A program made the translations under genes and the position numbers. Below are positions 32,124 through 59,517 of a stretch of 64,000 nt of DNA, in pieces; position 1 is the first letter of the stretch, and each line of letters opens with the position of its first letter. Where the stretch lies: NCBI GenBank assembly GCA_973895155.1, contig OZ316897.1:22109455-22173454 (forward strand), read 5' to 3'. The notes beneath the pieces are model-generated. The model saw nothing but the letters and a program-made list of their open reading frames with translations, was not told the origin of the DNA and did not search any database. The stretch comes from Marsupella aquatica. Lineage: Eukaryota; Plantae; Marchantiophyta.

Positions 32124-32221
32124 TCACCAACTGCACAAATGGGTAAACCATTAGTCTGATTTCATAAATAGTCCATACATGTAGTCCATCTATGGACTTC
32201 ACACACCTAGCTAAAACCTAT

Positions 32222-38188: not shown

Positions 38189-38860
38189 TCAAATCCAAGA
38201 TATGTGACTCCTAGCAGGAGTGCCTAGTGTAGGGTCAATGTCATGGTCAGGACAGTAAAACATCCCCTTCTTGGGCTGCCCATGCGCTGAGTGATCCCAA
38301 ATTGTTCGATCATGGGCAAATCCCCTCTGCTGGATAAATAGCAGGCAGTCCTTGTGCCATGCCTTAGGACACCTCATGCACTGAACCAAAAAGCCATTAG
38401 CCCCATCATTGGGCCCCTGTCCACAAGTAAGACAAATATGGAGTCCACATGATGCTGTGCCAGGAACCAAACACTGCTGACAGTAAAACCGGGCACAGAG
38501 AGGGTCTGGACATTTTCTTACCTCTTCACCCATTTTTCCAGACACATGGCACTTAAAGCAAGAATGTTCCTCATTCTTGCAATCAACACAAAGCCATTCT
38601 CCAACATGGCCATCAGCCAGGGATATAGTTGGACATAGCCATTGCTGACCCAAAGGACAGGAAACATTCTTATGGAAATGTCGGTGGCAAGGCCCATCAC
38701 AAACAATGAGATCCCCTCCCTCATCACAAATCGCACATACATGTGGACTATTCTGGTTAATCTCAATGTCTGAGTATAAGGACAATTGAGGTGCTTGAGA
38801 GGATTCACCTCTGCAACGATTCATGGCCTTCTGCTTATTGCGAGCCATGGTCCTGCACAC
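38189..38860 (-). CDS. Tandem PHD-finger-like zinc-finger protein (EDM2/NSD-type), probable CACTA passenger
   Basis: CAICDEGGDLIVCDGPCHRHFH...WLCVDC...HSCFKC...CPDPLCARFYC..C...CGLHICLTC...LVQCMRCPKAWHKDCL...MFYCPDHDID..LGTP.R.HI. This matches the triple-PHD cassette pattern of plant EDM2/NSD proteins. Confidence 0.75.
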   Translation of the reverse strand: MCRTMARNKQKAMNRCRGESSQAPQLSLYSDIEINQNSPHVCAICDEGGDLIVCDGPCHRHFHKNVSCPLGQQWLCPTISLADGHVGEWLCVDCKNEEHSCFKCHVSGKMGEEVRKCPDPLCARFYCQQCLVPGTASCGLHICLTCGQGPNDGANGFLVQCMRCPKAWHKDCLLFIQQRGFAHDRTIWDHSAHGQPKKGMFYCPDHDIDPTLGTPARSHISWI

Positions 38861-41204
38861 TCAGACCCTACATCAGATTGTGAAACAAGAAGGAATAATA
38901 GGGTGCAGCATGACACACAAGAATGAGGGTGTAGCATAAAATATGACATGTAACCACAAGGGTGCAGCACAAACCAATGCTTTATGGATGGCAAAGCATT
39001 TAGGACTGAGCAGTGCAAATAACCTTGGCTTATGATTGGAAGCAATCACAAATATTGCAACCTGTATGCCTTCGCTTCCTGTACAGTAGTGCTCACTCAC
39101 CCTGCCTTTTTAAAATCTATAAGGGCAACACAGAACAAATAGCAATTGAGTTTCAGCAAAGCATTCATTTGGCTCTCAAGTTTTAAAATGGACAGAGCAA
39201 ACACAACAATGTGCACAACAAAGCATAGAGAGCAACAAAACTCCAGCGAACTGGGACTCAGGCAAGAGATACAAATTTTAGCAGTGAAATCAAATCAAGA
39301 TTCGGACCAGTAAGTTCATTATGCAGTGCTCAATCACCCTGCCCTTTTTTAAATCTGTAAAAATCAAGTTTTATTGCGTGCCTTCTACATCTTAAGCTGC
39401 TGCACACATCTGTTACAGAACCATAAGTTGCTTTACTCTCAACAAGCTGCTGGTCCACCCACTTTTTCAAAAGCTGCACCGTACTCTATCTTCGTGCAGT
39501 CGTGGCATTACCGGGCTGCTGTCAGAGACCCTTACGAAGAATTTAAAATTGACCAAGCTGATTTTAGTTTAGTTTTGTCCAGTTTGCAGACCAAAGGAAA
39601 TCATGTGTGAACGTCAGACAGTTAGTTGTAAATTACCATAGTTGAAGAGCAAGGCTTGTACAAAAGCCACTGAGGAATTCTCTGAGGTGGCACAACAGTT
39701 GGCAAACCACACACGAAACTCTGAAACTTTTTGGCGACAGAATTCTACAGAGTCGCTGCTGGAATCCAGTGAGGATTCACCATACATGCCTGCACTTCTC
39801 TTCAGTAAAAAAAAAGTTGCTGAAAGTGCCAACGGCAGGGAGACGAAAAGTGAAGAAATGAGAAGTCTTTGGCACATTGATAACTAGTATGGTCCTCGGA
39901 CTTCAGATGCAAGAAAGGAAATGGAAGAGACAAAAAAATCTGTGAAAGAAAGTAGAGCGCAACAAAGATCCAACATACGCAGATTTGGATTGTGGGAACA
40001 GATGTTTGACGCAGATTTTCCAGCAAGGGTTAGCAAGTAGTCTAGTACTTACTAGTACTTACATTGTTCGATCGCAGCTCACTCATTCAGAGGAAAACAA
40101 ATCCTCAAATTAATGCTCTACATTGCCTTTTTCGTCATGCATGGATAGAGCCAATGTCTGTTGAGAATCTTTTACAATTGTTATGAAGCAAAGTACTTGC
40201 TAGACGGCCTGGTCGCTCATACAGAGCAAAACAATGCTCAAATTAATGCTCTAGATTGGCTTGGCACTCCCCATGCATGGATTGTATGCTGTTGGCAGTG
40301 CGCTAGCTGGCCCCTTGGTATGAATGAACTTACCCCACAACAGAGCACATAGTTACTCCGCTCGCACATCAATATCACCATTCTTATTTTGTCAAAGATA
40401 AGGAAATTATCTTAGGGCTTGAATTTTTAAGTAGAAGAGGAAGTGCACTTTAGGGTGTCCAAAAATTCTCCGATGTGTTTGTCAGTAAAGTCCATAGTAC
40501 CACAATTGCCACAACTTAAGGTTGCCGTTGAGCGAACATTACTAGTTGGATGGATTGTGAAAATGGTGATGGCCCCACCTTCATGGCTGCCGATTGCTAC
40601 GTTCAGGCATGGATGAAACCGAGAGGAGCAACAGTAGTCATGTTTCACACCAACGAACGGCTGAATTGAGATCTGAGGAAACGATCTTGGTGCTGAGGGG
40701 CAGAGAATAACAAACAGAAAATGCACTCGTAGGGATCCGCAACAAATGAATTGTGCAATCAAAATGGAATATCAATCAAACGTATATGAAATGCTCAGTC
40801 TACGCTTAGCCGGCACTTTCATCCAGAGAGTGTGCTTTTCACCATTCAAATCAAATTCCGCAAACTATAACAGACAAGCACAGTTGGCAATTGACAGACC
40901 AAGCATAGTGCCCAGAAATAGACTACAAATCAGCAATAGAACTCACTCTGCATTCCTCCCAACAGCCCTAGATTATTGTGAGTACAATGGAATGGGATTT
41001 TTATTGGTGTTCAACAGAAGAAATCTGTCTCTAGATGTGGACGCTCTACAGGCTCTAGAAGAGAAAATTCAGTGTCACAGAATGAAACGCGGTGGCATTA
41101 GCATGCAGTAGAACAAATCTCTTCGTGGGAAATGAGAAGCTTGACTCCCAATTAAAGTCCCAAAAAGACAAGAAGCTCACTCTACGAATGGAGATGGAGG
41201 GGAA

Positions 41205-41475: not shown

Positions 41476-42323
41476 CACCCGCAACTTGGAGGAAATGTAA
41501 AGAAGCTATTGCAATGCCAATCAATCAAAGCTCCTGGAAACATGTAGCGCCCAAGTCCTACCGAGGTGCTCCGCCGAACGTGCACAACACACTCAAAAAC
41601 AATGGCAGCCTGAATGGCTTCGGGTCGGAGCTCCTCCTCTAAAGCATGCAAATGGTCAATAGTTTAGGGTCCAGGTCCAAGGCTTCACTCAAACAATGCC
41701 TCGCCCAATGCTTGCCCGACGTTACGCAGCGCAGTGATAAAGTCCCAAGAGCACTTAAACTTTGTGCAACCCTAAAGGTGAGAGCACTCCGCTCGGAAAC
41801 TGATATGTGCACACCAAGAAACCACGACATTCAACGTAGCAGATCGATGGTCCCTAATTTCAAGATTGACCCTAGAGTTAGTCATTTATGAGAGAAGTCC
41901 ATAATGACGGTATGTTCTTGTAAACACTGATATGTCCTAATTTCAAGATTGACCCTAGAGTTAGTTGTGACGCCGCCGGTACGGCGGTTAATGAGTGATT
42001 CAGTCTAACTGCGCTCGGCACGCGCGTTAGGTGGGTCTTAGGCCGCTATTATTAGCATAACGACAGTATTTAGGTAATCATTAGGGGTAGGACATCATTA
42101 GGCAATAAGGGGGACTTCAGGTTCGGGCTGGCGGCGGGTCGCTATTCGCACACCCGGGTTATGAGCATGGAGGGGCCCCTCCCTCGGGTCCGTATAACGA
42201 ACTTAAGGAAGCGGCCACTAACGCACGCTGACTCAGACCGGCGGAGTGGCCGGTACACCACAAGCGTGAGCGGTTCAACCTATGGGCGTCGAGGAGACGT
42301 CGGGGATCGACAAGCCCTCAAAG

Positions 42324-42330
42324 TATAAAA
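42324..42330 (+). promoter_or_regulatory. TATA box in the 5' LTR (copy at ~52423 in the 3' LTR)
   Basis: TATAAAAGGGG followed by a CT-rich leader (ctctctcgttctctct) and the ATG at 42432. Confidence 0.65.
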
Positions 42331-42431
42331 GGGGAGCCAACCCTTTGTAGTGCACCAGTCCATCAGTCCGCGCGCCAGCTTCGACCCCAGCTCTCTCGTT
42401 CTCTCTAGGTCGCCACTACTATCTCCTCTGA

Positions 42432-45074
42432 ATGTCGCACACGATCCTCTCCAGCTCGGCCATTCGATTCTGGACGCAGTTCCTATCTACCGGAAGGCAC
42501 TTGGCCGATTCATTGAAACACGCCAACCCGCGCCGATACGAGATCGAACGCGAATACGAGAGAGCCATCCGCCTAGCAGGACGACACCACTACGTCCTTA
42601 ACTTTGACTACCCGTCTCAGAGCGAGCTTTACCGACCAGCTGAGGTATCTGGGTACTTCTTTGACGGAGACAAATATATCGGGTTCTGGGAAGCATTGCT
42701 TCGGCTTCCGGACGAGGTCTTCAATATCCCGGGTACAATCGACCTGCAGCGACATCACTTCGACCACATCCCTGCCCAGGTTCGGGCAGTCATTAACGGC
42801 GAGTCCAGTACCAACCGTTCGACAAGGGCGTCCGCACTCGCTTCGGAGAACTTCTACCAGCACCTACAGAGCTTCATGGGAACTCGGCCATCAACCAACA
42901 TGACCAACTCAGCCGGACCCGTACCCGTACCCGTACCCGTGCCCATGCAACCTCAGCTTCAGCTTCAGCCTCAGCCGCAGCCTAGCCAAACCCCACCACC
43001 TATCACCCAGCCAGCACAGGTACGCTCCGTCATCAACGCTGTAGATCTTAGCGATGACGACGAGGCTACCCCACCCTTGACCAGGCGGCCCAGAGGAACA
43101 AGCGCTCGGGGGGCCGACACTATACCGTCCCCACCCCCTGCTCTGACCCCAGGAGCGGCCCCAGCAGACAACATGGTGACCGTGGCCGCCCCGGGCCCGT
43201 TACCAACCGCAGTGGCACTCCCCAGGCCCGATCGGGAGGATGGGGAAGTATCACCTTCCCCGAGTCAGTCACGGGGAAAGAAAAGAAAGGAATCCGCCAG
43301 TGCATCCGGGTTACCGTTGGCCACGGTAGCCGTAGCCAAGGTAACGATGCATCGCATGGGGGAAAACGTTCACAGCAACATCCTCCATCCCAAGCATGCG
43401 GTGTACCTGAAGACTCAGGGATTTGAGCACCTCACCTCTCTCCCCTGGAACACTTGCAGGTACTACGGGGAGGACATGACAAAATTCGTCAAGAATTATG
43501 ACGACGTACGTCAACAGACTCGGCTGCGGGGAAGGAATATGTCCCTCACAGAAGAATGGCTCAAGATGATCTTCGGGTTACCCGAAGGTGACCATCGAGT
43601 CAAATCACGGGCTCCCGGGGGCAAGGGGGCCAAGTACCAATCTTCAAGTTTTCCCTCAGAGGGATCAGTAGACAATGGGTTCGTGATGAGGACCTGCCTC
43701 ATGCCCGAGATAGCTGAGCGGCTGGAGTTCCAGAGGTACGCTCTCCACATGATGGAACCCCGGGGGGAGATCTCCGCCGCCCAGGTCATCCAGGTCGAGA
43801 ACTATCGACCTAGGAGGTGGGCGTCGTACTTCGCTAAGAAATTCCATGAAGAGATGGAGCGGCGAAGGAAGACGCTGTACATTGGCGGGAAGGCGTATTT
43901 CGCTAGCCACATCGAAATCATTCTTGAGTGGTATGCCCGGTTTGATCGACGAACCCTTCCCCGCATCAACGTTACAAAGCTGGTTCCAGCTAGGTGGGTT
44001 TTTCCGGCATTGGAGAGACGGCCCCAACCCGAGGCCCGAAGTCCAGTGGACACGCCAGCTTCACCCACCCCACCTCCACAAATAGCCGTAATCATAACCG
44101 AGGAGGCGCCGGAGGGGTCGGACGTCGCAACCGTTGATGCGACCCAACTAGCCGGGCTAAGTACAGAAGTTGGTACGGTAGAGGTCTTACCCGAACCCGG
44201 GTCTCCCAAGGACCCGCCGGTGGCAATTCCGGAGAACCGGACATCGCTGCAGGAGGATACTCCGGCCCCTTCCAACGTTATGTCCCCAGGGCTGGACGTC
44301 ACTGCCCCGGCCCCTGCGCGTGTTGATGTCTGCCCGTGCCCAAATCCGGACAGGCACAACTTGGACCACCCGGAACTCTTCGTACAGGGTACGTTTTTGA
44401 ACGGGCTTCTGGGAGATTTCTCTCATCAAATTGCCCGGGATACCGGGGAGTTCATGGCTCGGAAGGTAGCCTGTTTCTTCAATCAGGAGTTGGTTGCCGC
44501 CGTAAAGGCAGGGCGGGCCCAGTCGGAGGCCCTTCAGAGGATAGAGCGGTACCGGGTGGAGTCCGTGTACCTAAAGAACGAAGTGGCGGCTCAAGAGGCT
44601 GAGCTTCTGCAACTACGACCCAAGGTAGCAGCCGCCGATGAGTTGTTAGCAAAGGCGTACGCTCTTACCGCCCTAGCCGAACAGGCCAAAGCTGGGAACG
44701 AGGCCGAGATTACACGGCTCCGGAACCAGATTGACAGTTTGAAGAAACAAGCTGTCACCTGGCAGAAAGACCTGGAGGAGGCCGAGGAGCGAGCCCAGCG
44801 GGACGCGACGGAGATAGCCACGCTGCAGGCCGAGATGGCGCGGCTCCAAACCGAGGCCGAGAAGCAGGACCAGCTGGCGAGTAAACTGGCGAGCGACGCC
44901 CAGCAGCTGGAGGAGGCATGTCAGGAGGCAGCAGAGGAGACGGACGCGGCGAGGCGAGAGAACGAATCTCTGCTGGACCAGGTCCAGCTCCTCAAAGCGG
45001 ACAATGATAGGCTTCGAAGGCAGCGGGATGGCCGTTCCCATTCGGGCGGCTCTGGCAAGCGTGCCAGGCATTAG
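42432..45074 (+). CDS. LTR-encoded 880-aa protein of unknown function (N-terminal globular region, Pro-rich linker, plant-transposon-accessory-like central domain, C-terminal coiled coil, basic NLS-like motifs)
   Basis: Uninterrupted 2643-nt ORF wholly inside the 5' LTR. Central LKTQGFEHL..LPW...FVKNY....RLRGRNMSLTEEWLKMIFGLP; heptad-rich Glu/Ala/Gln region ~aa 690-865; RGKKRKE and GKRARH motifs. Confidence 0.85.
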   Translation: MSHTILSSSAIRFWTQFLSTGRHLADSLKHANPRRYEIEREYERAIRLAGRHHYVLNFDYPSQSELYRPAEVSGYFFDGDKYIGFWEALLRLPDEVFNIPGTIDLQRHHFDHIPAQVRAVINGESSTNRSTRASALASENFYQHLQSFMGTRPSTNMTNSAGPVPVPVPVPMQPQLQLQPQPQPSQTPPPITQPAQVRSVINAVDLSDDDEATPPLTRRPRGTSARGADTIPSPPPALTPGAAPADNMVTVAAPGPLPTAVALPRPDREDGEVSPSPSQSRGKKRKESASASGLPLATVAVAKVTMHRMGENVHSNILHPKHAVYLKTQGFEHLTSLPWNTCRYYGEDMTKFVKNYDDVRQQTRLRGRNMSLTEEWLKMIFGLPEGDHRVKSRAPGGKGAKYQSSSFPSEGSVDNGFVMRTCLMPEIAERLEFQRYALHMMEPRGEISAAQVIQVENYRPRRWASYFAKKFHEEMERRRKTLYIGGKAYFASHIEIILEWYARFDRRTLPRINVTKLVPARWVFPALERRPQPEARSPVDTPASPTPPPQIAVIITEEAPEGSDVATVDATQLAGLSTEVGTVEVLPEPGSPKDPPVAIPENRTSLQEDTPAPSNVMSPGLDVTAPAPARVDVCPCPNPDRHNLDHPELFVQGTFLNGLLGDFSHQIARDTGEFMARKVACFFNQELVAAVKAGRAQSEALQRIERYRVESVYLKNEVAAQEAELLQLRPKVAAADELLAKAYALTALAEQAKAGNEAEITRLRNQIDSLKKQAVTWQKDLEEAEERAQRDATEIATLQAEMARLQTEAEKQDQLASKLASDAQQLEEACQEAAEETDAARRENESLLDQVQLLKADNDRLRRQRDGRSHSGGSGKRARH

Positions 45075-45986
45075 CGGCGGAGTAGGAATAGATTAGGATT
45101 AGGATTGGCTTAGTCAGGCTCTTGGGACAGGCACCTGCCTTAGGTACGGCAGCGCTGCCCTGCTGTCCAGCCTGCGTAGATTAGGATCTTCTAATAAGAC
45201 ACAGCCGTTTTCCGGCCTGACTGTCAGCTTAGTTAGGACCTTGGTCAGCGAATCTTCGGCGGGAGGACACCCCGTTCCTCGGCTCTTAGTATTTAGTGCA
45301 CCCCTCGGTAGAGGCAGGGGGGGTTTTTTAGTTTCAGAGTCGGACATCTGCGGGACATGCGGGGAGTCCCGACCTCTGGGAATGACAGAGTACCAAGGGG
45401 AGGGGGTAGGACTAAGCTTGCCGGGCGAGTGCGGAGCCGGGCTCCGTTGTAGTGTGCACCCTTGGCCTTGAACCTGTGCATTCCAGGGCTGTCGTGTCAA
45501 CTAAGTGTACGCATATGTTCCCTTTGTAGTAAAAATCCTTTCCCATCATTTTTCCTTCGTGTAAATCGAGATTGTATGCATGTGTGCGCATATGTGTGTG
45601 GGTTTCTCGTATATGGGTGGCAGCGCCGGGCCGAACGCACTACCCGAGACGTGCACAGGGTGCAGCCTGCGGGTAAGTGGTTGCGAGCACGGGTTGAGGA
45701 CCTGTATCATCGAATCCGGATCGAAGGCGGACAGCACGAAGGCTTAGAAGCCCTTAAGCCGGGGTCGATCCTGCTATCGACTAAGGTACGTTTCGGCGGC
45801 GGAACACAAACCATACCTAGGAGGTGTCCGTATTTAGCAGTATGCGCACTTAGCGCTAGTTTATGAGAATAAGGTGCATTACGTGCTTCCCTTCCTGCCC
45901 GAACCCTCAGATTTACGAGGGATGTGCCCGTCTAAGCTGAAGTCTGAGTTAAAGCCGAAGCCTACGACGTGACATAGCCTTTGTTT

Positions 45987-46004
45987 TGGCGCTAGATGGA
46001 GGGG
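45987..46004 (+). promoter_or_regulatory. Primer-binding site, tRNA-Asn-like
   Basis: TGGCGCTAGATGGAGGGG is complementary, with one mismatch, to the plant tRNA-Asn 3' end (…CCCCTCCTTCTAGCGCCA, recalled from memory). It lies 12 nt after the LTR end. Confidence 0.7.
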
Positions 46005-46097
46005 GCACTCTACATATCGTAGAGGGGAGACATGTGCGTATTCACCTAGGCAGGATACATCAGGACGTAGTACTAACCATTGCATTTATATGAGTAA

Positions 46098-49000
46098 ATG
46101 CCCGTCACTCGTTCTCAAGCAGCTTACTTGAGGAGATTGACCAGCGAACGAGAAAGTGCAACCACAACAAGCTCCGACTCGTCGGGCTCGGAGGACTCGC
46201 AATCGTCCCGACGTATGAACATACCCCCGGGATCTTCGGGGTCCGGTTCGACCGGCCCTGCTGCGGTTCCACCACCACCACCACCACCACCACCACCTAT
46301 GGCAGCCGCTCCACCGGTGGCCCGCGCTGCTCAGGCGCCTCCACAAATATCGCAACGATCGCGATTTCATTATCGACCTTTCAAAGGGCGTCATGGGGAT
46401 GATCCGGATGAATGGTTGGATGAGTTTGAAGCCACTGCTAAAGCTAATGGGGAAGACGCCATTAAGCTAACCATCCTCCCGGGAGTAATGCGGGGAGAAG
46501 CTCGTCCATGGTACAACTCGTTACCACCCGGGACTACCTGGGCACAATTCCAAGCTGCATTGCTGCAGGAGTTTCGTGCCATTGGATCAGAACAACGTTC
46601 TCTATTAAAGATTGGCCAGCTTCGCATGGGAAAAAAAGAGTCCCTGCGGAAGTTCATTCAGAAGTTTCAGAAACTTGCGGCCAAGATCCGGCCCAGGCCA
46701 GGAGACGCGCTCCAGCTTACATGGTTCCTTCATGGTTTGCCCACGAATATGCAATTCTGGGTACGCCAGAATAATCCAATTTCAATGCAGGCGGCCATAG
46801 CGTGCGCCGAAACTTACCGGGAGTCCACCTATAACTCCCGGCGGAGCCAGCGAGCACGCCGCAGGAAGGGTAAGTACGAAACCTTCAGTGACAGTGACTC
46901 CGAATCGGACGACGAGAGGAAGAAGAAACGGAAGAAGAAGAAGAAACATCGTTTGACCTCGTCCAGCTCCGAGACGGAATCCAGTTCGGATTCAGCTTCA
47001 AGCATCGGATCCTCTACCTCCAGTTCATCAGGAAGTGACTTGGAGAGCGAAAGCCGGAGCAAAAAGAAGAAGAGACGAGTGAAGAAGGAGGGGAAGATTA
47101 AACCCCGGGCGCAAAGAACGATACCAGATCCAAAGGCTGCCGAAGCAGACAAGCTGAACGAAATCACGGATCGACTCAAAGCACTGTCAGTACATCTTTC
47201 GGAGAAGCCGGTGGAGAAGAAGAAGCCATCTGAGATTCGAGCCCATGCGTGGTGTTCAAAGTGCTTCCAATCCGGCCATGTGGTGCAGGAATGCCCAAGG
47301 TGGAAGAACCGAGTTCACCAAGTAGAGCTGGATGATGTTGACAACCCGGGCCCCGAATCGGAGTCCACGGAGTATTTCTTTGAGGACCCTCCTGATTCCG
47401 TGTACCAGATTTCAACGGTTGGTCCGCGTAATTTAGCGGGTAGAACTGCGTACCCCTACCCAAGTAATGGCCGGAGTTTCCAGGTTATCAGTAACCCGAG
47501 CATCCCTCCTAAGCCAGGGATGTGGCGGTCCCCGGTTTGTTACAACTGTGAAAAGCCAGGACACTTTGCGAGGGAATGCACCGAACCAAGACGTCAGGGA
47601 GATGGCCGAGGCACCCCACTATGTCAAGTTTGCAAAACAGAGGCTCATTCCACGGCCAACTGTCCGTTGGTAATCGCTGCTCGAACAAGTGCGGCTAGAC
47701 CGGCCCAGGCTGGACCAGTCACGAGCGATGCAGTCGTCCAAATGATTGCTGTAGAATGGCAAGATGACAACACCGAGTGGGTGAATCTGGTGGACGTGGC
47801 GGAACACCCTAATCCATTGGATGAGGCCGAGTGCTACCGAGTGTCGACAAGGGCCGAACGGAAGGAAGAAAAGACGGAGGAGAAACGGAGGAAAAAGCAA
47901 GATACTACTCCAGTGCAGCCAGCGATAAATATACCCCCGGAAAAGGACGATGACTACCGACGGGACGACCCGAAGCTATTTTTCCCCCGCATCGAAGAAT
48001 TGGTAAAGAAACAGCTGGAGGCTTACGAAGCTCGGGAATACCAGAAGGCAATCGATAAGGACATCAAAGCAGCCGAGACAGCCCGGCGTCAGGAGCAAGA
48101 AAAGCAAGATAAACAAGAGGAAGCCAAGCAGCAGCCAACGAAAGAAACAAAGGAGGACTATGATATTAAGGAGGACGTGAAGAGTTGCCCGGTTACAACG
48201 ACGGTGGGGCAACTGCTGCAGAACAACCCACAGTACAGACGACAACTGAGGGAGTTGCTCATGGGTCGCCGAAGGAGAAGACTACCCCGAGTTGGGAGTG
48301 CGGACTGCAACATGATATGCGAGGACCTTCGAGCGCCGGACATCTCGATCGAAATTAATAACTGTACCATCAAGATGGTCCTTGTAGACGGAGGAGCGGG
48401 AGTCAACATCATGACTGAAGAAACGTCAGTCAAGTTAGGATACCTCACGTATCAACCCACGGCCCGAGCTATCAGATTAGCAAACGGGGCAAGGGTCCTC
48501 CCATTAGGCACGCTCACACGAGTGCTCACTCTGGTGGGAGGGGTAGAGTTCTATCTCAACTTCTTAGTCATGAGGCCGGTTCGTCCCTCCTCTTATCCGG
48601 TTCTTCTGGGCAGGCCGTGGCTGTACGGTGGCCGTGTAGTCACGGATTGGGGAAAGAAGGAGCTACGGTTCGGGGAACCCACCGTACGGGTATCCTGGGC
48701 AATGGACGATTATCAGGGAGAAACCCCACAAGGACCCGAGGAATATGATTCGGAGACCTCGGAGGAAGAGGAACTCAATATGATCGAACTCATCTCGTCC
48801 CTATCCGAGGAAGATGTCTTCGGAGTTGAAGCAACCCGAGAAACACATCTCCTAAATTACCCGAGGGCTGCCATTGAGTCCACCCCAAGTACATCTACTG
48901 TCGGGGATGAGGAAACGCACGAACAACTCGTCGAGACGGAGGACACGGCTCCAGCTAAGCAGGGAGCCGTGGCTACTCCTTCCATTTCAGAGCCTTGTAA

Positions 49001-52000
49001 CCATGAACCAGCCCAACAACCGCCTGAGGCCGAAAACTTGAGACCGAGACATAAAAAGCGAGTCTCATGGGATCCGTCCATTCCGCAATTGGAGGAAGTA
49101 AACCCCATCCCGAGACCAATCCCGGTCCCACCCATGTACGGAGGGGTTCGGTTAGCTGAGCTTGACGCGAGCCTGGACCCGAGTCTGCGAAACCAGGTTG
49201 AAGTCATCAGGAAGGAGCACTACCGGAAGTACACTATTGGGATGGACAAATCTTTTAACCTGGGCCACGCTTTGACGGGGAAGGCTGAAAAAGCCATCCA
49301 AGCTTTGCTCAAGGAATATGAAGATGTGTTTGCATGGAGTCATCATGATTTAACAGGCGTCTCCCCCGAGTTGGGAGAACACACAATCGATCTGAACCTA
49401 GGAGCCCATGCGGTACGACAGCGACAACGTCGCATGAATCCGAGGTACTCCATCTTAGTGAAGGAGGAAATTGATCGTCTCCTCGCCGCCGATATCATTT
49501 ACCCGGTAATGGCCAGCGACTGGGTCTCTCCCATTGTCATTGTACCAAAGAAGGGAGGTACGGATGGAAAACCTAAGATTCGTATCTGTCAGGACTACCG
49601 TAAGCTGAATGACGCAACCCGAAAAGACCATTACCCATTACCATTCACGGATATGGTTCTAGATATGGTGGCCCGAAATGAAATCTATACATTTCTTGAC
49701 GGGTATTCAGGTTATAACCAAATCTGGATTCGTCTCGCGGATCAGCTCAAAACAACGTTCACTACGGAGTGGGGAACGTTCGCATTTCGGAGGATGCCTT
49801 TTGGTCTGTGTAACGCCCCGGCTATGTTTCAGCGCCTTATGATGAATATCTTCCACGATTTCCTACGGGAATTTTTGGAGATATTTATCGATGACTTTGC
49901 CATCTTCGGAACCGTTGCCATGCACCCCGAACACCTACGACGAACGTTGCAACGATGCCGAGATGTTAACCTCAAACTACATCCCGCCAAATGCTTCTTC
50001 GGGGTAGAGGAGGGGGTGTTACTCGGGCATCGTGTGTCCAAACGGGGCATTGAGGTGGACCAAGAGAAAGTTGCGGCCTGGATGGCGGTGGTGTTCCCCT
50101 TGGATCAAAAAGCAGTACGATCCTTCTTGGGCTGCGTAGGGTATTACCGCCGGTTCATTAAAGACTTTGCTAAAATTGCGTTGCCCTTAACTGAGATGAT
50201 GAAGAAGGACGCAGCGGTCGAGGAAACACCCCGGAGACGGATTGCTTTTGAGGAACTCCGTAAACGACTCACCACCGCGCCTATCATGGTCACCCCAGAT
50301 TGGAATAAGGAGTTCCACGTGTATGTCGATGTGTCAGGGTTCTGTATCGGATCCGTACTTAGTCAGCTAGATGAGGATGGACGTGATCACCCCATCTATT
50401 TCGCTAGCCGTCAACTATTTGCAGCCGAAAAGAATTATTCCCCCACTGATCGAGAAGCTTTGGAAATAATCTACTCGTGTAAAAAGTTCCGACACTATCT
50501 GCTAGGCTACAAGGTCATTTTCCACACGGATCATGATAGCCTGAAGTACATGGTCAACAAAGCGGATGTGACAGGACGGATAGCCCGGTGGGTGCTACTT
50601 CTCCAGGAATTTAATTACGAAGTTCGGGTTCGGCCAGGAAGGGTACACCTCAATGCCGATTTCTTTTCACGACTGGACGGCGTACCAGTCGATCAGCCAA
50701 TTGATGATATTTTTCCGGATGAGGAGTTGTTCCACGTAGGGGAAGGGACACCAACGTGGTATGGCTCAATAATCACCTTCCTTTTAACGGGCCGCATCCC
50801 TGACGGCATCAATCAGGAGGCCGCCGCTGTGTTTTTACGGAAAGCCGGGCCTTATGTCATGATACAGGGTCACCTACATAAGGAAGGTATTAACGGAAAG
50901 TTACGACGCTGCTTAGAGTATAAGGAGACACTTATCGTGATACGGGCCCTGCATGAAGAAGAAGCTGGAGGCCATTTCGCGGCAGTTACGACAGCCCAAA
51001 AGATTCTGGACTCGGGGTATTGGTGGCCTACGTTGCATCGGGATGTACAGCGCTTCATTAAGGGCTGTGACTTGTGTCAGCGAGCGGGGGCCCCGAGGCG
51101 GGCTCATCATCACCCGCTCACATCTGTGCTTCCATTGGCACCATTCAAAAAATGGGGAATTGATTATATCGGACCGTTCACTCCCGTTACCCGAAGGCGA
51201 AGGTGCAGGTACATCCTATTAGCTATTGATTACTCCACCAAATGGGTCGAAGCGCGGGCTACGGTAAAGGACGACGCCGCAACCAGTGCCAGATTCTTAT
51301 ACGAACAGATTTTCACCCGATTCGGACCGCCCTTAGAATTGGTAAGCGACCGTGGAACCCACTTCCTCAATGACACCGTAGCCCAGCTTACGGAGCGTTA
51401 CCTAGTCAAGCACCGCAAGACTACCCCATATCATCCTAAAGCCAACGGGATGGCGGAGAGAGCAAATGGTATCATTGGGAAGATCCTCAACAAAACTGTA
51501 GCTGCGCACAAAATGGATTGGGATGATAAGTTGTACGCGGCGGTGTACTCGTATAATCTAGCTTACAAAACTACTACGAGTCATAGCCCGTACTTTCTGG
51601 TGTTCGGCCAACATTCGTTGGTGCCCGTCGAATTTGAAGTGCACACTCCACGGGTCAGCATTCGGGATCGCTTACCTGAATCTGAAAGTCTGTCAGACCG
51701 AGCTTATCAGATTGAAGCCTTGGAAGAAGCACGGCTACTGGCAGCTCGACACACCGTGAAGAAACAGGCAACTTCGAAGAAGCAGCACGACAAAGGACTA
51801 CGGAGGGTCGACGTCGTGGCAGGCGATCTAGTCCTTCTGTACGATAGTAGGTACATGCAGTTTCCAGGGAAGCTGCATACCCGGTGGTTGGGGCCCTTCC
51901 TTGTCAATCAGATCTACCGAAACGGATCTTTGGAGCTTGCGACGTATGCCGGCGATTTACTCCCCACACGAATCAGCTACGATCGTGTAAAAAAGTACCA

Positions 52001-52097
52001 CCATCAAGATGACGACGCCGATAGCGATGTTCGCGAGGACGCTTCACAATTAAGCAGGGAGCTATGTGACGCCGCCGGTACGGCGGTTAATGAGTGA
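46098..52097 (+). CDS. gag-pol: Ty3/gypsy Gag-Pol polyprotein (single ORF, 1999 aa)
   Basis: Gag DPDEWLDEFE; three CCHC knuckles; protease LVDGGAG; RT CQDYRKLN, FLDGYSGYNQI, MPFGLCNAP, FIDD; RNase H YVDVSG...TDHDSL; integrase GGHF/CDLC, WGIDYIGP, SDRGTHF, NGMAE; WLGPF motif; no chromodomain. The stop lies 33 nt inside the 3' LTR. Confidence 0.97.
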   Translation: MPVTRSQAAYLRRLTSERESATTTSSDSSGSEDSQSSRRMNIPPGSSGSGSTGPAAVPPPPPPPPPPMAAAPPVARAAQAPPQISQRSRFHYRPFKGRHGDDPDEWLDEFEATAKANGEDAIKLTILPGVMRGEARPWYNSLPPGTTWAQFQAALLQEFRAIGSEQRSLLKIGQLRMGKKESLRKFIQKFQKLAAKIRPRPGDALQLTWFLHGLPTNMQFWVRQNNPISMQAAIACAETYRESTYNSRRSQRARRRKGKYETFSDSDSESDDERKKKRKKKKKHRLTSSSSETESSSDSASSIGSSTSSSSGSDLESESRSKKKKRRVKKEGKIKPRAQRTIPDPKAAEADKLNEITDRLKALSVHLSEKPVEKKKPSEIRAHAWCSKCFQSGHVVQECPRWKNRVHQVELDDVDNPGPESESTEYFFEDPPDSVYQISTVGPRNLAGRTAYPYPSNGRSFQVISNPSIPPKPGMWRSPVCYNCEKPGHFARECTEPRRQGDGRGTPLCQVCKTEAHSTANCPLVIAARTSAARPAQAGPVTSDAVVQMIAVEWQDDNTEWVNLVDVAEHPNPLDEAECYRVSTRAERKEEKTEEKRRKKQDTTPVQPAINIPPEKDDDYRRDDPKLFFPRIEELVKKQLEAYEAREYQKAIDKDIKAAETARRQEQEKQDKQEEAKQQPTKETKEDYDIKEDVKSCPVTTTVGQLLQNNPQYRRQLRELLMGRRRRRLPRVGSADCNMICEDLRAPDISIEINNCTIKMVLVDGGAGVNIMTEETSVKLGYLTYQPTARAIRLANGARVLPLGTLTRVLTLVGGVEFYLNFLVMRPVRPSSYPVLLGRPWLYGGRVVTDWGKKELRFGEPTVRVSWAMDDYQGETPQGPEEYDSETSEEEELNMIELISSLSEEDVFGVEATRETHLLNYPRAAIESTPSTSTVGDEETHEQLVETEDTAPAKQGAVATPSISEPCNHEPAQQPPEAENLRPRHKKRVSWDPSIPQLEEVNPIPRPIPVPPMYGGVRLAELDASLDPSLRNQVEVIRKEHYRKYTIGMDKSFNLGHALTGKAEKAIQALLKEYEDVFAWSHHDLTGVSPELGEHTIDLNLGAHAVRQRQRRMNPRYSILVKEEIDRLLAADIIYPVMASDWVSPIVIVPKKGGTDGKPKIRICQDYRKLNDATRKDHYPLPFTDMVLDMVARNEIYTFLDGYSGYNQIWIRLADQLKTTFTTEWGTFAFRRMPFGLCNAPAMFQRLMMNIFHDFLREFLEIFIDDFAIFGTVAMHPEHLRRTLQRCRDVNLKLHPAKCFFGVEEGVLLGHRVSKRGIEVDQEKVAAWMAVVFPLDQKAVRSFLGCVGYYRRFIKDFAKIALPLTEMMKKDAAVEETPRRRIAFEELRKRLTTAPIMVTPDWNKEFHVYVDVSGFCIGSVLSQLDEDGRDHPIYFASRQLFAAEKNYSPTDREALEIIYSCKKFRHYLLGYKVIFHTDHDSLKYMVNKADVTGRIARWVLLLQEFNYEVRVRPGRVHLNADFFSRLDGVPVDQPIDDIFPDEELFHVGEGTPTWYGSIITFLLTGRIPDGINQEAAAVFLRKAGPYVMIQGHLHKEGINGKLRRCLEYKETLIVIRALHEEEAGGHFAAVTTAQKILDSGYWWPTLHRDVQRFIKGCDLCQRAGAPRRAHHHPLTSVLPLAPFKKWGIDYIGPFTPVTRRRRCRYILLAIDYSTKWVEARATVKDDAATSARFLYEQIFTRFGPPLELVSDRGTHFLNDTVAQLTERYLVKHRKTTPYHPKANGMAERANGIIGKILNKTVAAHKMDWDDKLYAAVYSYNLAYKTTTSHSPYFLVFGQHSLVPVEFEVHTPRVSIRDRLPESESLSDRAYQIEALEEARLLAARHTVKKQATSKKQHDKGLRRVDVVAGDLVLLYDSRYMQFPGKLHTRWLGPFLVNQIYRNGSLELATYAGDLLPTRISYDRVKKYHHQDDDADSDVREDASQLSRELCDAAGTAVNE

Positions 52098-55000
52098 TTC
52101 AGTCTAACTGCGCTCGGCACGCGCGTTAGGTGGGTCTTAGGCCGCTATTATTAGCATAACGACAGTATTTAGGTAATCATTAGGGGTAGGACATCATTAG
52201 GCAATAAGGGGGACTTCAGGTTCGGGCTGGCGGCGGGTCGCTATTCGCACACCCGGGTTATGAGCATGGAGGGGCCCCTCCCTCGGGTCCGTATAACGAA
52301 CTTAAGGAAGCGGCCACTAACGCACGCTGACTCAGACCGGCGGAGTGGCCGGTACACCACAAGCGTGAGCGGTTCAACCTATGGGCGTCGAGGAGACGTC
52401 GGGGATCGACAAGCCCTCAAAGTATAAAAGGGGAGCCAACCCTTTGTAGTGCACCAGTCCATCAGTCCGCACGCCAGCTTCGACCCCAGCTCTCTCGTTC
52501 TCTCTAGGTCGCCACTACTATCTCCTCTGAATGTCGCACACGATCCTCTCCAGCTCGGCCATTCGATTCTGGACGCAGTTCCTATCTACCGGAAGGCACT
52601 TGGCCGATTCATTGAAACACGCCAACCCGTGCCGATACGAGATTGAACGCGAATACGAGAGAGCCATCCGCCTAGCAGGACGACACCACTACGTCCTTAA
52701 CTTTGACTACCCGTCTCAGAGCGAGCTTTACCGACCAGCTGAGGTATCTGGGTACTTCTTTGACGGAGACAAATATATCGGGTTCTGGGAAGCATTGCTT
52801 CGGCTTCCGGACGAGGTCTTCAATATCCCGGGTACAATCGACCTGCAGCGACATCACTTCGACCACATCCCTGCCCAGGTTCGGGCAGTCATTAACGGCG
52901 AGTCCAGTACCAACCGTTCGACAAGGGCGTCTGCACTCGCTTCGGAGAACTTCTACCAGCACCTACAGAGCTTCATGGGAACTCGGCCATCAACCAACAT
53001 GACCAACTCAGCCGTACCCGTACCCGTACCCGTGCCCATGCAACCTCAGCTTCAGCTTCAGCCTCAGCCGCAGCCTAGCCAAACCCCACCACCTATCACC
53101 CAGCCAGCACAGGTACGCTCCGTCATCAACGCTGTAGATCTTAGCGATGACGACGAGGCTACCCCACCCTTGACCAGGCGGCCCAGAGGAACAAGCGCTC
53201 GGGGGGCCGACACTATACCGTCCCCACCCCCTGCTCTGACCCCAGGAGCGGCCCCAGCAGACAACATGGTGACCGTGGCCGCCCCGGGCCCGTTACCAAC
53301 CGCAGTGGCACTCCCCAGGCCCGATCGGGAGGATGGGGAAGTATCACCTTCCCCGAGTCAGTCACGGGGAAAGAAGAGAAAGGAATCCGCCAGTGCATCC
53401 GGGTTACCGTTGGCCACGGTAGCCGTAGCCAAGGTAACGATGCATCGCATGGGGGAAAACGTTCACAGCAACATCCTCCATCCCAAGCATGCGGTGTACC
53501 TGAAGACTCAGGGATTTGAGCACCTCGCCTCTCTCCCCTGGAACACTTGCAGGTACTACAGGGAGGACATGACAGAATTCGTCAAGAATTATGACGACGT
53601 ACGTCAACAGACTCGGCTGCGGGGAAGGAATATGTCCCTCACAGAAGAATGGCTCAAGATGATCTTCGGGTTACCCGAAGGTGACCATCGAGTCAAATCA
53701 CGGGCTCCCGGGGGCAAGGGGGCCAAGTACCAGTCTTCAAGTTTTCCCTCAGAGGGATCAGTAGACAATGGGTTCGTGATGAGGACCTGCCTCATGCCCG
53801 AGATAGCTGAGCGGCTGAAGTTCCAGAGGTACGCTCTCCACATGATGGAACCCCGGGGGGAGATCTCCGCCGCCCAGGTCATCCAGGTCGAGAACTATCG
53901 ACCTAGGAGGTGGGCGTCGTACTTCGCTAAGAAATTCCATGAAGAGATGGAGCGGCGAAGGAAGACGCTGTACATTGGCGGGAAGGCGTATTTCGCTAGC
54001 CACATCGAAATCATTCTTGAGTGGTATGCCCGGTTTGATCGACGAACCCTTCCCCGCATCAACGTTACAAAGCTGGTTCCAGCTAGGTGGGTTTTTCCGG
54101 CATTGGAGAGACGGCCCCAACCCGAGGCCCGAAGTCCAGTGGACACGCCAGCTTCACCCACCCCACCTCCACAAATAGCCGTAATCATAACCGAGGAGGC
54201 GCCGGAGGGGTCGGACGTCGCAACCGTTGATGCGACCCAACTAGCCGGGCTAAGTACAGAAGTTGGTACGGTAGAGGTCTTACCCGAACCCGGGTCTCCC
54301 AAGGACCCGCCGGTGGCAATTCCGGAGAACCGGACATCGCTGCAGGAGGATACTCCGGCCCCTTCCAACGTTATGTCCCCAGGGCTGGACGTCACTGCCC
54401 CGGCCCCTGCGCGTGTTGATGTCTGCCCGTGCCCAAATCCGGACAGGCACAACTTGGACCACCCGGAACTCTTCGTACAGGGTACGTTTTTGAACGGGCT
54501 TCTGGGAGATTTCTCTCATCAAATTGCCCGGGATACCGGGGAGTTCATGGCTCGGAAGGTAGCCTGTTTCTTCAATCAGGAGTTGGTTGCCGCCGTAAAG
54601 GCAGGGCGGGCCCAGTCGGAGGCCCTTCAGAGGATAGAGCGGTACCGGGTGGAGTCCGTGTACCTAAAGAACGAAGTGGCGGCTCAAGAGGCTGAGCTTC
54701 TGCAACTACGACCCAAGGTAGCAGCCGCCGATGAGTTGTTAGCAAAGGCGTACGCTCTTACCGCCCTAGCCGAACAGGCCAAAGCTGGGAACGAGGCCGA
54801 GATTACACGGCTCCGGAACCAGATTGACAGTTTGAAGAAACAAGCTGTCACCTGGCAGAAAGACCTGGAGGAGGCCGAGGAGCGAGCCCAGCGGGACGCG
54901 ACGGAGATAGCCACGCTGCAGGCCGAGATGGCGCGGCTCCAAACCGAGGCCGAGAAGCAGGACCAGCTGGCGAGTAAACTGGCGAGCGACGCCCAGCAGC

Positions 55001-56067
55001 TGGAGGAGGCATGTCAGGAGGCAGCAGAGGAGACGGACACGGCGAGGCGAGAGAACGAATCTCTGCTGGACCAGGTCCAGCTCCTCAAAGCGGACAATGA
55101 TAGGCTTCGAAGGCAGCGGGATGGCCGTTCCCATTCGGGCGGCTCTGGCAAGCGTGCCAGGCATTAGCGGCGGAGTAGGAATAGATTAGGATTAGGATTG
55201 GCTTAGTCAGGCTCTTGGGACAGGCACCTGCCTTAGGTACGGCAGCGCTGCCCTGCTGTCCAGCCTGCGTAGATTAGGATCTTCTAATAAGACACAGCCG
55301 TTTTCCGGCCTGACTGTCAGCTTAGTTAGGACCTTGGTCAGCGAATCTTCGGCGGGAGGACACCCCGTTCCTCGGCTCTTAGTATTTAGTGCACCCCTCG
55401 GTAGAGGCAGGGGGGGTTTTTTAGTTTCAGAGTCGGACATCCGCGGGACATGCGGGGAGTCCCGACCTCTGGGAATGACAGAGTACCAAGGGGAGGGGGT
55501 AGGACTAAGCTTGCCGGGCGAGTGCGGAGCCGGGCTCCGTTGTAGTGTGCACCCTTGGCCTTCAACCTGTGCATTCCAGGGCTGTCGTGTCAACTAAGTG
55601 TACGCATATGTTCCCTTTGTAGTAAAAATCCTTTCCCATCATTTTTCCTTCGTGTAAATCGAGATTGTATGCATGTGTGCGCATATGTGTGTGGGTTTCT
55701 CGTATATGGGTGGCAGCGCCGGGCCGAACGCACTACCCGAGACGTGCACAGGGTGCAGCCTGCGGGTAAGTGGTTGCGAGCACGGGTTGAGGACCTGTAT
55801 CATCGAATCCGGATCGAAGGCGGACAGCACGAAGGCTTAGAAGCCCTTAAGCCGGGGTCGATCCTGCTATCGACTAAGGTACGTTCCGGCGGCGGAACAC
55901 AAACCATACCTAGGAGGTGTCCGTATTTAGCAGTATGCGCACTTAGCGCTAGTTTACGAGAATAAGGTGCATTATGTGCTTCCCTTCCTGCCCAAACCCT
56001 CAGATTTACGAGGGATGTGCCCGTCTAAGCTGAAGTCTGAGTTAAAGCCGAAGCCTACGACGTGACA
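52065..56067 (+). repeat. 3' LTR (4003 bp)
   Basis: Direct repeat of the 5' LTR with a 6-bp deletion and a small number of substitutions. Confidence 0.96.
52531..55167 (+). CDS. Second copy of the LTR-encoded protein (878 aa)
   Basis: Intact ORF in the 3' LTR; differs from 42432-45074 by a GP deletion and about six residue changes. Confidence 0.85.
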   Translation: MSHTILSSSAIRFWTQFLSTGRHLADSLKHANPCRYEIEREYERAIRLAGRHHYVLNFDYPSQSELYRPAEVSGYFFDGDKYIGFWEALLRLPDEVFNIPGTIDLQRHHFDHIPAQVRAVINGESSTNRSTRASALASENFYQHLQSFMGTRPSTNMTNSAVPVPVPVPMQPQLQLQPQPQPSQTPPPITQPAQVRSVINAVDLSDDDEATPPLTRRPRGTSARGADTIPSPPPALTPGAAPADNMVTVAAPGPLPTAVALPRPDREDGEVSPSPSQSRGKKRKESASASGLPLATVAVAKVTMHRMGENVHSNILHPKHAVYLKTQGFEHLASLPWNTCRYYREDMTEFVKNYDDVRQQTRLRGRNMSLTEEWLKMIFGLPEGDHRVKSRAPGGKGAKYQSSSFPSEGSVDNGFVMRTCLMPEIAERLKFQRYALHMMEPRGEISAAQVIQVENYRPRRWASYFAKKFHEEMERRRKTLYIGGKAYFASHIEIILEWYARFDRRTLPRINVTKLVPARWVFPALERRPQPEARSPVDTPASPTPPPQIAVIITEEAPEGSDVATVDATQLAGLSTEVGTVEVLPEPGSPKDPPVAIPENRTSLQEDTPAPSNVMSPGLDVTAPAPARVDVCPCPNPDRHNLDHPELFVQGTFLNGLLGDFSHQIARDTGEFMARKVACFFNQELVAAVKAGRAQSEALQRIERYRVESVYLKNEVAAQEAELLQLRPKVAAADELLAKAYALTALAEQAKAGNEAEITRLRNQIDSLKKQAVTWQKDLEEAEERAQRDATEIATLQAEMARLQTEAEKQDQLASKLASDAQQLEEACQEAAEETDTARRENESLLDQVQLLKADNDRLRRQRDGRSHSGGSGKRARH

Positions 56068-56308
56068 TTAGTCATTTATGAGAGAAGTCCATAATGACGG
56101 TATGTTCTTGTAAACACTGATATGTCCTAATTTCAAGATTGACCCTAGAGTTAGTCATTTATGAGAGAAGTCCATAATGATGGTATGTTCTTGTAAACAC
56201 TGATATGTCCTAATTTCAAGATTGACCCTAGAGTTAGTCATTTATGAGAGAAGTCCATAATGACGGTATGTTCTTGTAAACACTGATATGTCCTAATTTC
56301 AAGATTGA

Positions 56309-59300
56309 TGTGGGATGGCTCAGTGTCAGCTAGTGTAGAGAAACATGACATTCTTTCGTTTAGAAGAGGAAATAGTTAGGGAAAAAGTTTTAGTGCTATC
56401 AGAGTAGCTAGGTTTAGGGCACTTAAGTAAGAAGGGAAGCTTAGTAGAGGTAAGAGGGAATTTAGTTATGCAAAGTTATCTAGGGGTAAGCAAGTTACTA
56501 TAGGAGGGGCAGGAAACTAGTCCGTCCTTAGTTATAATAGGCGACTAAGTCGGGACCGAAAAATGACCCGACACCGGACATCTTATTTTTTGGCTGATAT
56601 TTCTCCCATGGGTGCTGGGAGGTCCCTAGGGAACCCTGAAAAAGTATGAAGTCAAGTGGGGTCTTAACCTAGGAGTTATAAGTATTTTGGCAAAAATCAA
56701 AGTTACCAAATAGCGGGTCCCGGGAAAAATAGCTGATGGGTAAATGTAGGGGTTCCAAGTTTGGAAGTGGGTTAAGTATGGTCCCCTCTATCCCTAGAAA
56801 CTTGTGGGACAACTTTGTCACACTTGGTTACTTTTTGGGAGCATCTCAAAGTTGAGAAGAATTTTGGAAGACATAAAGACTTGACCCTCTTTGCCTAATT
56901 TTAGAAAAGTTGTTATAGGGTTTTGTTTATATCTTAGTAAACCCGGACATAGTCCTATGTCCATAGAATCAGTGGAGCTACTCAGAAGTCCTTTTGGACT
57001 TATGTGTGAGTTTTGGAGGGGGGTCCAAAATCGCCCCAAAATGCTGTTTTTCCAAAAAAAAAATGTATTTTTTTCTAAGTGTAAACCGCGTGGGCGACGA
57101 TCACGCGGCGAGCACGAGGCAAGGAGGAGCGAGCACGAGGCAAGGAGGAGCAAGCACGAGGCTGGTGAGGACGTCAAGCACCGGGAGGCTGTCCAAAGGT
57201 GCTGCATGATTACTTGAGGAATCAATTGAGCACAAGGGCGGCTGAATTGAAGGAAGGGCGGCTGAATTGAAATGGCTGCTGCTGATTGAAGAAGCAAGGG
57301 CTGTTGCTGATTGAAGAAGCTATGGCTGCTGAGAAGGAAAAGAGCTATGGCTGCAAATTAGGATCGCTGCTGGCTTTGAATTGGGAAGGCTGCTTGCTGC
57401 TATGACAGCTGCACACTAGATTAGAGGTGCTCCTACTAATCAGGCACGAGATGCTCATGAGAATTGGCTGGCTGCTGCCTTGATGCTGCTGAATTGAATG
57501 ATGCTGCTGCTAGCTGCGAAATTGCAAAGGTGGGCAGCTACGAAATTGAGAAGAGAGACCTGCTTGACTGAGAAGGAATCAAGCTATGGTTGCTGCTGCT
57601 GTGCTTCAAATCTGCTGTTGTTGTGCTGTAAATGCGCTGATGTGACTGTGCTGCTAGCTGCGAAATTGACTGTGCTGCTAGCTGCGAAATTGACTGTGTT
57701 GCTAGCGGCAAAATTGAAGAGGTGGGCTAGCTGCGAAATTGACTAGGCTGGCTGTGAGCTATGGTGGCTGTGAAATTGAGGGGCTGGCGGCTGATCAGCT
57801 GGACTGCTGCACAAGAAAGAATCCAATAGAGAATGCTGTGGTTTTAGATTGAATTCACGAGAGAGAAATGGCTGCAAACATTGCTGTCCTTACAATTTCT
57901 TCATAAGAAACATGAGTATAATGAGAGTGCTCTCCCCTCATGACACGTGGAATCCCCATAAGGGGCATGTAAGGTAAGTGTAATCGGGCCGCCGCTTACA
58001 CCCGCTTTACACCAAAAACAGGCCTTGGGAGAATGGGCATAACTTTGGCTAGAGGTATCCGTTGGGGCCCAAATTTTTTTGTGCTGAGTTAGGGGAAGAT
58101 AAGGCACCCCCTGGTGAAGGTGGAACCCCAGAAAAGTAATCACTCAAATATATTTTTAACCGAGGCCACGAGGGAGTCCCGACAACTTGCAAACCAAAGT
58201 CGGCATAGGGGAATGAATACCAGATTTAGGGGCTGACCTTTCTTGCACCCATACCACTTGAGTTAGGCTCTAGAGAAGGGTACTTACCTTTGGCCAAAGG
58301 TGTAAGGCCATCAAGTTAAGAAAAGTAAATATAGGGGGTAGTTTACTTAGGGTAGTAAAGGGGTTACAAGTAAAATAAGGCCAACTTTGACTAGGCACAA
58401 CTTGAGACTCACTCACTCTTTTTGCGAGCTTTCAAGTGGGTTGGTAAGCTGGTGAGGAGGACCATAAGTGGGAGTAGGTTTGGAAGTCAAAGCATACCAC
58501 TCATGTGTGGCATATTCCAGGGCTTGGAAGGAGGCAAAATAGCAAGTAGTAGGGTGGGCTATGAACTATAGAGTTGGACTTTGTGTGTTAGGAGGACTTG
58601 GGGGAGGTATAGTTGGACCCCAGGTCAAGCTTGGTGTGATGTGGAAGGAGATAGTATATAAGGAGGAAGTTTTCATTTGTTAGGGACCGGGAGTCTCATC
58701 TCTTAAGTGAAATCTCTACCTTGCCAAGGTAGGGCTAAGCTTGAGAAAGGAGAGGTGGTCCATGCTTAGTGTGGAGAATGTGTAGTGAACTTTTGTTGTA
58801 AAGGTGATGCAATAAAAGGAGACTTACCAATCTTCATTGTGACCATTAAGTGTGAGTGCATTTGAAGTATATGAGAGCAAGAGAAGAGTCCATGCTATGG
58901 TATAATCTTGGTCTAAGCTTGAAGGGGATGTGCTAGTACAAAACCAAGGCCAAGGAGGCAAGGTTAAGGTATAGCATTACTTTGAGACTTAGAGAGGATT
59001 ATAGCTTGAGGGTGGAAAGTACTTTGCTTGGTGTGTGGTGTTAACAAGAAGTAAGAACAAGAGGAAGAGTCCTTAGATAGAGGAGCCTTCTCTAGGGCTC
59101 AAAGGGGATGTGTGGACCCAAACCAAGGCCAGGGGGGCAAGGTTGAGGGGTAACACTACTTTGAGGGTCTTGAGGAGACTTAAGCTTGAAGAGGAAAGTA
59201 CTTTGGGTTCTTGGGTGTTTGTGTGAGAATCTACTCTAAGGTGACAGCTTGGAGCGGAGATCCCCCTTGCTGATCCTTGGAGTAGAGGAGAGGGGAAGGG

Positions 59301-59509
59301 GTGAGTACAAAAGTAGTCAAGGGGACTACCTCTCTAGAAGTGGAGAGTTGAAACTACTTATGTATGGAGTGATTGGACATTGTAAGCACACTTCAGAAGT
59401 TTTGTCAATCCTTTGTGACCCTGGTATGACATGGAGCAGGTATTAGGTAGTCTTTTGGGGAGAAAAGCCGCTTAAGCTCCTTGGCAAGTGTTTGACATAG
59501 AGTCCCACC
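56309..59509 (+). repeat. Putative 5' LTR (~3.2 kb) of the second Ty3 element
   Basis: TGTGGGA…TCCCAC inverted termini, candidate TATATAA at 58655, internal ~110-bp direct repeat (~58920-59025 vs ~59100-59205) and GCTGCT-rich tracts. The second LTR is not in the window. Confidence 0.65.
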
Positions 59510-59517
59510 CTTGTTTT

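Follow-up and report, generated by a model that had tools for sequence, protein, structure and literature searches.

An intact gene inside both long terminal repeats of a liverwort Ty3 retrotransposon encodes a protein with a predicted VANC-type fold

Extra open reading frames (ORFs) of plant Ty3 elements are classed, in the passages cited here, as lying 5′ or 3′ of the polyprotein within the internal region (PMC6317226, PMC7264820), and their function is described there as a long-standing question (PMC7264820). Protein-based anti-silencing is, by the cited account, described for DNA transposons and open for long terminal repeat (LTR) elements (PMC12844716); VANC21 comes from the Arabidopsis Mutator-like DNA transposon VANDAL21 (PDB 9LNJ; PMC5735166). 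A gene within the LTR itself is known from mouse mammary tumor virus (MMTV), whose sag gene is, in the cited data, mostly kept in solo LTRs (490 of 527 contigs; PMC4667437). Here we describe a Ty3 retrotransposon from the liverwort Marsupella aquatica (contig OZ316897.1) that carries an intact gene, termed the LTR gene below, in each of its two 4-kb LTRs. The element lies in a stretch of 64,000 nt, referred to as the window, and all coordinates are positions within it (Table 1).

Self-BLAST of the window returned one direct repeat (41966-45975 versus 52065-56068) with 99.4% identity over 4010 columns. Both LTRs start with TGT and end with ACA, and the register of an 83-bp tandem repeat at the insertion site shows that exactly 5 bp were duplicated. 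A first-pass annotation, made from the letters alone, had described LTRs of about 4.0 kb bounded by TG..CA and a TTAGT target-site duplication, which the LTR alignment and inspection of the ends confirm. Seventeen substitutions and one in-frame 6-nt indel separate the two LTRs; the insertion is therefore young. Together with a primer-binding site (PBS), which presumably matches tRNA-Asn, a polypurine tract (PPT) and the order GAG-PR-RT-RH-INT, these features identify a Ty3/gypsy element. Its gag-pol frame enters the 3′ LTR by 33 nt, leaving no non-coding spacer between pol and LTR. Seven of the ten listed sequencing runs, from five organisms, contain part of the element stretch. The unbroken form of the 83-bp repeat is present as a joint in three of four runs (X2, X5, X6), and in X5 PPT-like loose ends precede the LTR start (7 contigs, agreement 0.53).

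An intact sense ORF had been claimed for each LTR and is present in both, encoding 880 amino acids (aa) in the 5′ and 878 aa in the 3′ copy. Its placement was also read correctly: the ATG follows the TATAAA by 108 nt (about 100 nt had been stated), and the stop codon lies 900 nt before the LTR end (about 900 nt had been stated), with the PBS beginning at 45987. Order-2 Markov simulation of the LTR (500 replicates) gave a longest open frame of at most 374 codons, with a median of 167, compared with the 880 observed. Each insertion thus delivers two gene copies, as had been proposed, and a solo LTR would retain one.

Contigs were placed on the element at 80% likeness; sequencing depth does not equal copy number and is a weak measure. 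Variant and joint figures refer to the rows listed, namely the 40 best-supported of 604 variants, 12 of 31 indels, and 15 of 36 and 15 of 92 joints. Thirty of the 40 best variants fall inside the ORF, 21 of them synonymous and 9 not, against an expected synonymous share of 24-31% (p 1.6e-7 to 1.6e-5). Eight of the 12 indels lie outside the ORF, and the other four offset one another in a single contig. Between the two LTRs the ORF shows 10 differences, 4 of them synonymous, which are compatible with neutrality (p 0.51), as expected after insertion. The LTR ORF is a real gene under purifying selection among family copies; the first-pass annotation had named selection as a check on the gene, and the synonymous excess bears it out.

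Family copies also carry the gene as part of the LTR. In four runs, contigs cover 30, 30, 30 and 28 of the 30 bins over the LTR and the start of gag, coverage is flat along the LTR, and median depth over the ORF is at least that over the non-coding LTR parts. LTR depth including the ORF start is 4.4 times the internal depth in X1 and 6.2 times in X3, whereas intact elements would give 2, which hints at many solo LTRs that retain the ORF. Single X1 contigs connect the LTR start to three further positions of the element (44983, 45163, 46514), like nested insertions. None of the joints listed skips the ORF, and no listed contig covers the whole element. Deletions inside the ORF in single contigs show that broken copies exist.

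The protein of copy 1 consists of a helical N-domain (~aa 8-120), a proline-rich linker, a basic patch (KKRK, 283), a central VANC/plant mobile domain (PMD)-like domain (~aa 300-516), a further linker, a coiled-coil-like tail (~aa 690-870) and a C-terminal KRAR. The predicted model of the central domain matches VANC21 (PDB 9LNJ), an anti-silencing factor bound to DNA and the sole structural match, at 9-10% sequence identity. We therefore predict a VANC/PMD-type fold for a protein that the first-pass annotation had left unidentified. A full HMMER search found 37 homologues, chiefly over aa 300-520; four of the ten representatives looked up come from the liverwort Calypogeia fissa. One homologue (P0038, 906 aa, 31% identical) has the same N-domain, central domain and coiled-coil-like tail and ends in GKRAR. 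In Pfam, neither the ORF nor its segments nor 35 aligned members had a match, whether to DUF1985 or to PMD (PF10536); Atlas leads to DUF1985 (0.82) and to a cluster with 18% PMD (0.81) are leads only, unbacked by Pfam. Other searches were negative in their own scope: a PDB sequence search with the protein gave 0 matches, a viral fold library held no credible match for its model (best TMq 0.21), Foldseek found no match in PDB for the N-domain model, word-based protein searches gave 0 matches for aa 290-540 and 1 for the full-length alignment, and a metagenome scan with the central domain returned 29 pattern matches and no relative.

A second Ty3 element of a sister family, whose LTR lacks the ORF, lies 241 bp away and groups with the ORF-bearing element in a tree of RT-RH sequences. 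The ratio of observed to expected CpG (CpG o/e) is 1.03 in the RT-RH region of the ORF-bearing element versus 0.05 in the RT of the neighbor, about a twentyfold contrast in the homologous region, and 0.90 versus 0.33 in the LTRs; over its whole pol the neighbor has 0.13. NCG codons make up 27% in the ORF-bearing element versus 4% in the neighbor. A metagenome scan with a pol relative (P0064) found one locus, L001, which belongs to the neighbor's ORF-less family, includes only 1.5 kb of LTR, and shows CpG o/e of 0.08-0.09 and 1% NCG codons. For this one pair of families, the retained CpG indicates a long escape of the ORF-bearing family from CG-methylation-driven decay, as an anti-silencer would predict.

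From these data we propose, at about even confidence, that a recent Ty3 insertion carries in both LTRs an intact, selected gene for a protein of predicted VANC/PMD-type fold that likely acts as a family-specific anti-silencing factor. The layout, the intact frames, the purifying selection among family copies and the CpG retention are observed; judging from the model, the protein likely helps the element to evade silencing by host DNA methylation. The proposal has four inferred parts, ranked by falling support: DNA binding, a family free of CG methylation, a transcript from the unique 3′ region (U3) of the LTR, and the origin of the layout. In the first, the central domain would bind DNA in the nucleus, aided by the coiled-coil tail. 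In the second, the protein would keep CG methylation off its own family's copies, as VANC does with VANDAL transposons.

Several observations weigh against this proposal. The CpG contrast concerns a single pair of elements, and two other elements of the window are also CpG-rich: a copia remnant (CpG o/e 0.83) and an inverted-repeat element (0.99). The motif search gave a strand-biased excess of TTAG/TTAGG that is weak, non-specific and not significant over all words, and no clear tandem motif array. The same points favor a different function for the same layout and fold, which we consider a serious if somewhat less probable explanation: the protein could activate transcription of the LTR, anchor the element to chromatin during integration, or serve in nuclear import or in the particle, roles that have been suggested for accessory ORFs of other plant elements. 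In that case the retained CpG would mirror the chromatin setting (Polycomb-marked repeats without methylation, for example) or the history of the family. The ORF-bearing element and its neighbor do sit within the same 83-bp repeat, and the cited passages list plant extra ORFs with PMD, Transposase_28, Athila or SMC-like parts without assigned function (PMC6317226, PMC7264820). On the other hand, the sole structural match is a DNA-bound anti-silencing factor, and the twentyfold CpG difference was found against an ORF-less sister family in a homologous region.

The third part of the anti-silencing proposal concerns transcription. We favor, with some confidence, an ORF placed in U3 and served by two promoters: transcription of the gene would begin at the TATA box at 42324 and stop in the same LTR, and the last 0.9 kb would provide a second promoter for gag-pol and genomic RNA. 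This end holds a TATA-like TATTTAG at 45290, 685 nt from the LTR end; the TATA boxes of the sister LTRs lie 844 and 711 nt from theirs, and a short box common to all three LTRs lies 568 nt from the end in the ORF-bearing LTR versus 769 and 635 nt in the sisters. The only GTAAG donor-like word (GTAAGT, 45673) and the TACTAAC/AG before the gag ATG are both downstream of the ORF. In both Ty3 elements, the 3′ part of the LTR contains a donor-like word, and an acceptor-like word directly precedes gag (45673-46094; 59302-59593), a pair that would splice the PBS out of the gag-pol mRNA. An acceptor-like word at 42408 may allow a spliced, env-like route to the LTR gene. In the fourth part, plus-strand priming would have shifted upstream as far as the pol end, which brought a sense 3′ accessory gene of the Athila type into the LTR. 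The order of pol, sense ORF and terminal region is indeed Athila-like without the spacer, as if the PPT had shifted upstream; by eye, we found no convincing relic of an old PPT after the ORF. Each 5′, 3′ and solo LTR would thereby be a self-contained source of a protein acting in trans.

The first-pass annotation had assumed another transcript, which is compatible with either protein function and which we regard as doubtful: the TATA box at 42324 would be the sole promoter, with the ORF in a repeat region (R) of ~3 kb, or in the unique 5′ region (U5), heading a 13-kb genomic RNA from which gag-pol is made by read-through and splicing or re-initiation. Speaking for it and against two promoters, the LTR has its only canonical TATAAA at 42324, followed by a pyrimidine patch, and none in its last 0.9 kb, where the TATA-like word is weak and the sequence does not align significantly to the sister LTRs. 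A long R would be mechanically possible, since strand transfer could happen anywhere in it. However, there is no strong donor between the predicted start and the ORF ATG, which would leave gag-pol behind an 880-codon upstream ORF, the sister promoters lie 0.7-0.85 kb from the LTR end, and the spacer-free order of pol, ORF and terminal region fits absorption into U3. It is very improbable that a single event of recombination or tandem duplication produced the 4-kb repeat from an element with short LTRs and the ORF between them. In favor of that view, no listed contig spans the whole element, and the joints listed are 15 of 36 and 15 of 92. Against it, the 4-kb unit has perfect TG..CA ends and a 5-bp duplication with the PBS directly after and the PPT directly before it, ORF depth is at least that of the non-coding LTR and several times the internal depth, contigs of another organism show PPT-like sequence next to the LTR start, which is also joined to the three nested-insertion sites, and no listed joint skips the ORF.

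Table 1. Features of the ORF-bearing Ty3 element and its neighbor in the 64,000-nt window
Feature	Position	Strand	Remark
5′ target-site duplication	41961..41965	+	TTAGT, within 83-bp tandem repeat
5′ LTR	41966..45974	+	4009 bp, TG..CA; self-BLAST and boundary inspection
TATA box	42324..42329	+	sole TATAAA in LTR; likely promoter of LTR gene
LTR gene, copy 1	42432..45074	+	880 aa, intact
Domain with predicted model matching VANC21	43329..43979	+	model residues 11-227 = aa 300-516
Non-coding LTR end	45075..45974	+	0.9 kb; candidate second promoter, R and U5
Primer-binding site	45987..46004	+	12 nt past 5′ LTR end
gag-pol	46098..52097	+	single 1999-aa ORF: GAG, CCHC, PR, RT, RH, INT; last 33 nt within 3′ LTR
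Polypurine-tract-like stretch	52052..52061	+	in pol reading frame, 3 nt before 3′ LTR
3′ LTR	52065..56067	+	4003 bp; self-BLAST and boundary inspection
LTR gene, copy 2	52531..55167	+	878 aa, intact
3′ target-site duplication	56068..56072	+	TTAGT
Second Ty3 element, sister family	56309-64000		3.2-kb non-coding LTR, different PBS; 241 bp away, same 83-bp tandem repeat

The 83-bp tandem repeat (41853-41965 and 56068-56308) took both Ty3 insertions and may be a satellite or a piece of an older element that both families target. In the sister family, L001 carries an ORF of the Elf1-type zinc-ribbon (L001:1995-2240; PF05129, E 2.9e-28) in the leader between PBS and gag, which may stem from a captured gene for a transcription elongation factor; the leader of the neighbor in the window is much shorter. 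Elsewhere in the window, the CpG-rich inverted-repeat element (23837-27466; 730-bp repeats, 97.4%) has no Pfam match, with open frames in its arms at 24741-23944 (minus) and 26729-27442 (plus) and a further frame at 25808-26695. A decayed CACTA/EnSpm element (30401-38900, minus strand) encodes Transposase_21, DUF4218 and DUF4216 and is strongly CpG-depleted (o/e 0.31), with a PHD-finger ORF upstream of it (38860-38189). The broken Ty1/copia element (6588-13118) has short LTR-like ends and lies between two multi-kb repeat copies (1-5200 and 17502-23700; 82-88% identical), which hold no homologue of the LTR ORF.

The family permits a direct test of anti-silencing by an LTR element, as an intact, selected gene of predicted VANC fold is present here, is absent from a sister family of the same genome, and goes with a CpG contrast of about twentyfold between the two. 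With the gene inside the LTR, solo-LTR formation, normally the host's route for removing retrotransposon genes, becomes a route of multiplication. Genes of this kind could be overlooked or misplaced by standard annotation, which seeks extra ORFs on either side of the polyprotein. More tentatively, an LTR retrotransposon family of early land plants may have moved a VANC-like, sequence-specific anti-silencing system into its LTR, with numerous solo LTRs as cassettes that keep the family unmethylated in trans. If so, the VANC/PMD fold would have served retrotransposons as a counter-defence since ancient times, before there were VANDAL transposons, and the role of plant extra ORFs of the VANC/PMD superfamily would be explained.

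How does the element compare with described systems? In the RT-RH tree, built without REXdb references from 115 of 122 rows (7 with <300 aligned residues were dropped), it falls in a 32-row clade of environmental elements, sister to 68 angiosperm rows. The Athila-like reading of this clade comes solely from PF20167 in two tree rows, which we take to be a link to Athila. No chromodomain was matched in gag-pol and, unlike in the Tat clade (in the REXdb sense), no additional RNase H (aRH). The element may thus be a member of the OTA non-chromovirus superclade, to which Athila and Tat belong.

The LTR gene resembles the PMD-A extra ORFs of Ogre/Tat and the Athila ORFs, as the cited passages describe them, as an accessory ORF of a Ty3 element, here a probable non-chromovirus (PMC6317226, PMC5418596), and by way of the VANC and Atlas leads its protein probably belongs to the same structural superfamily. 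As in Athila, by the same descriptions, a sense ORF follows pol. In contrast to the ORFs of Ogre/Tat and Athila, described as internal and 5′ of gag or 3′ of pol, it lies wholly in both LTRs and has no Pfam model. Athila further differs in its long non-coding region from pol to the 3′ LTR, whereas here pol overlaps the LTR and the sense ORF is inside it.

With VANC21 the protein shares the predicted fold of the central domain and, as far as the cited passage goes, the nature of a transposon-encoded accessory protein with a coiled coil (PMC13547354). VANC is, however, described as dicot-specific and encoded by MuDR/VANDAL elements, whereas our protein is encoded in a Ty3 LTR; the likeness is one of predicted fold, at 9-10% identity, with no DUF1985 Pfam match, an extra N-domain and no clear tandem motif array.

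A selected ORF within both LTRs corresponds to an LTR-encoded gene of the MMTV sag type, and sag, as described in the cited passages, likewise is a protein gene in the LTR, present twice per provirus and reached by several promoters or spliced routes (PMC4667437). It differs as an immune superantigen gene of an animal betaretrovirus that lies mostly but not wholly in U3 (PMC4667437), whereas the plant element carries 880 aa wholly inside the LTR, with an unrelated, predicted DNA-binding fold. The first-pass annotation had taken the architecture to be little described or undescribed. Among the literature listings searched, we found neither a plant LTR-internal gene nor a VANC-like factor in an LTR element, although the extra-ORF tables of PMC6317226 may include LTR-internal ORFs; the cited passages on Burro likewise mention no gene within the LTR (PMC6431247). 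Both the layout and its persistence in solo LTRs have a clear precedent in MMTV sag, and the interest lies in the combination of an LTR-internal gene, a predicted VANC-type fold and family-specific CpG retention.
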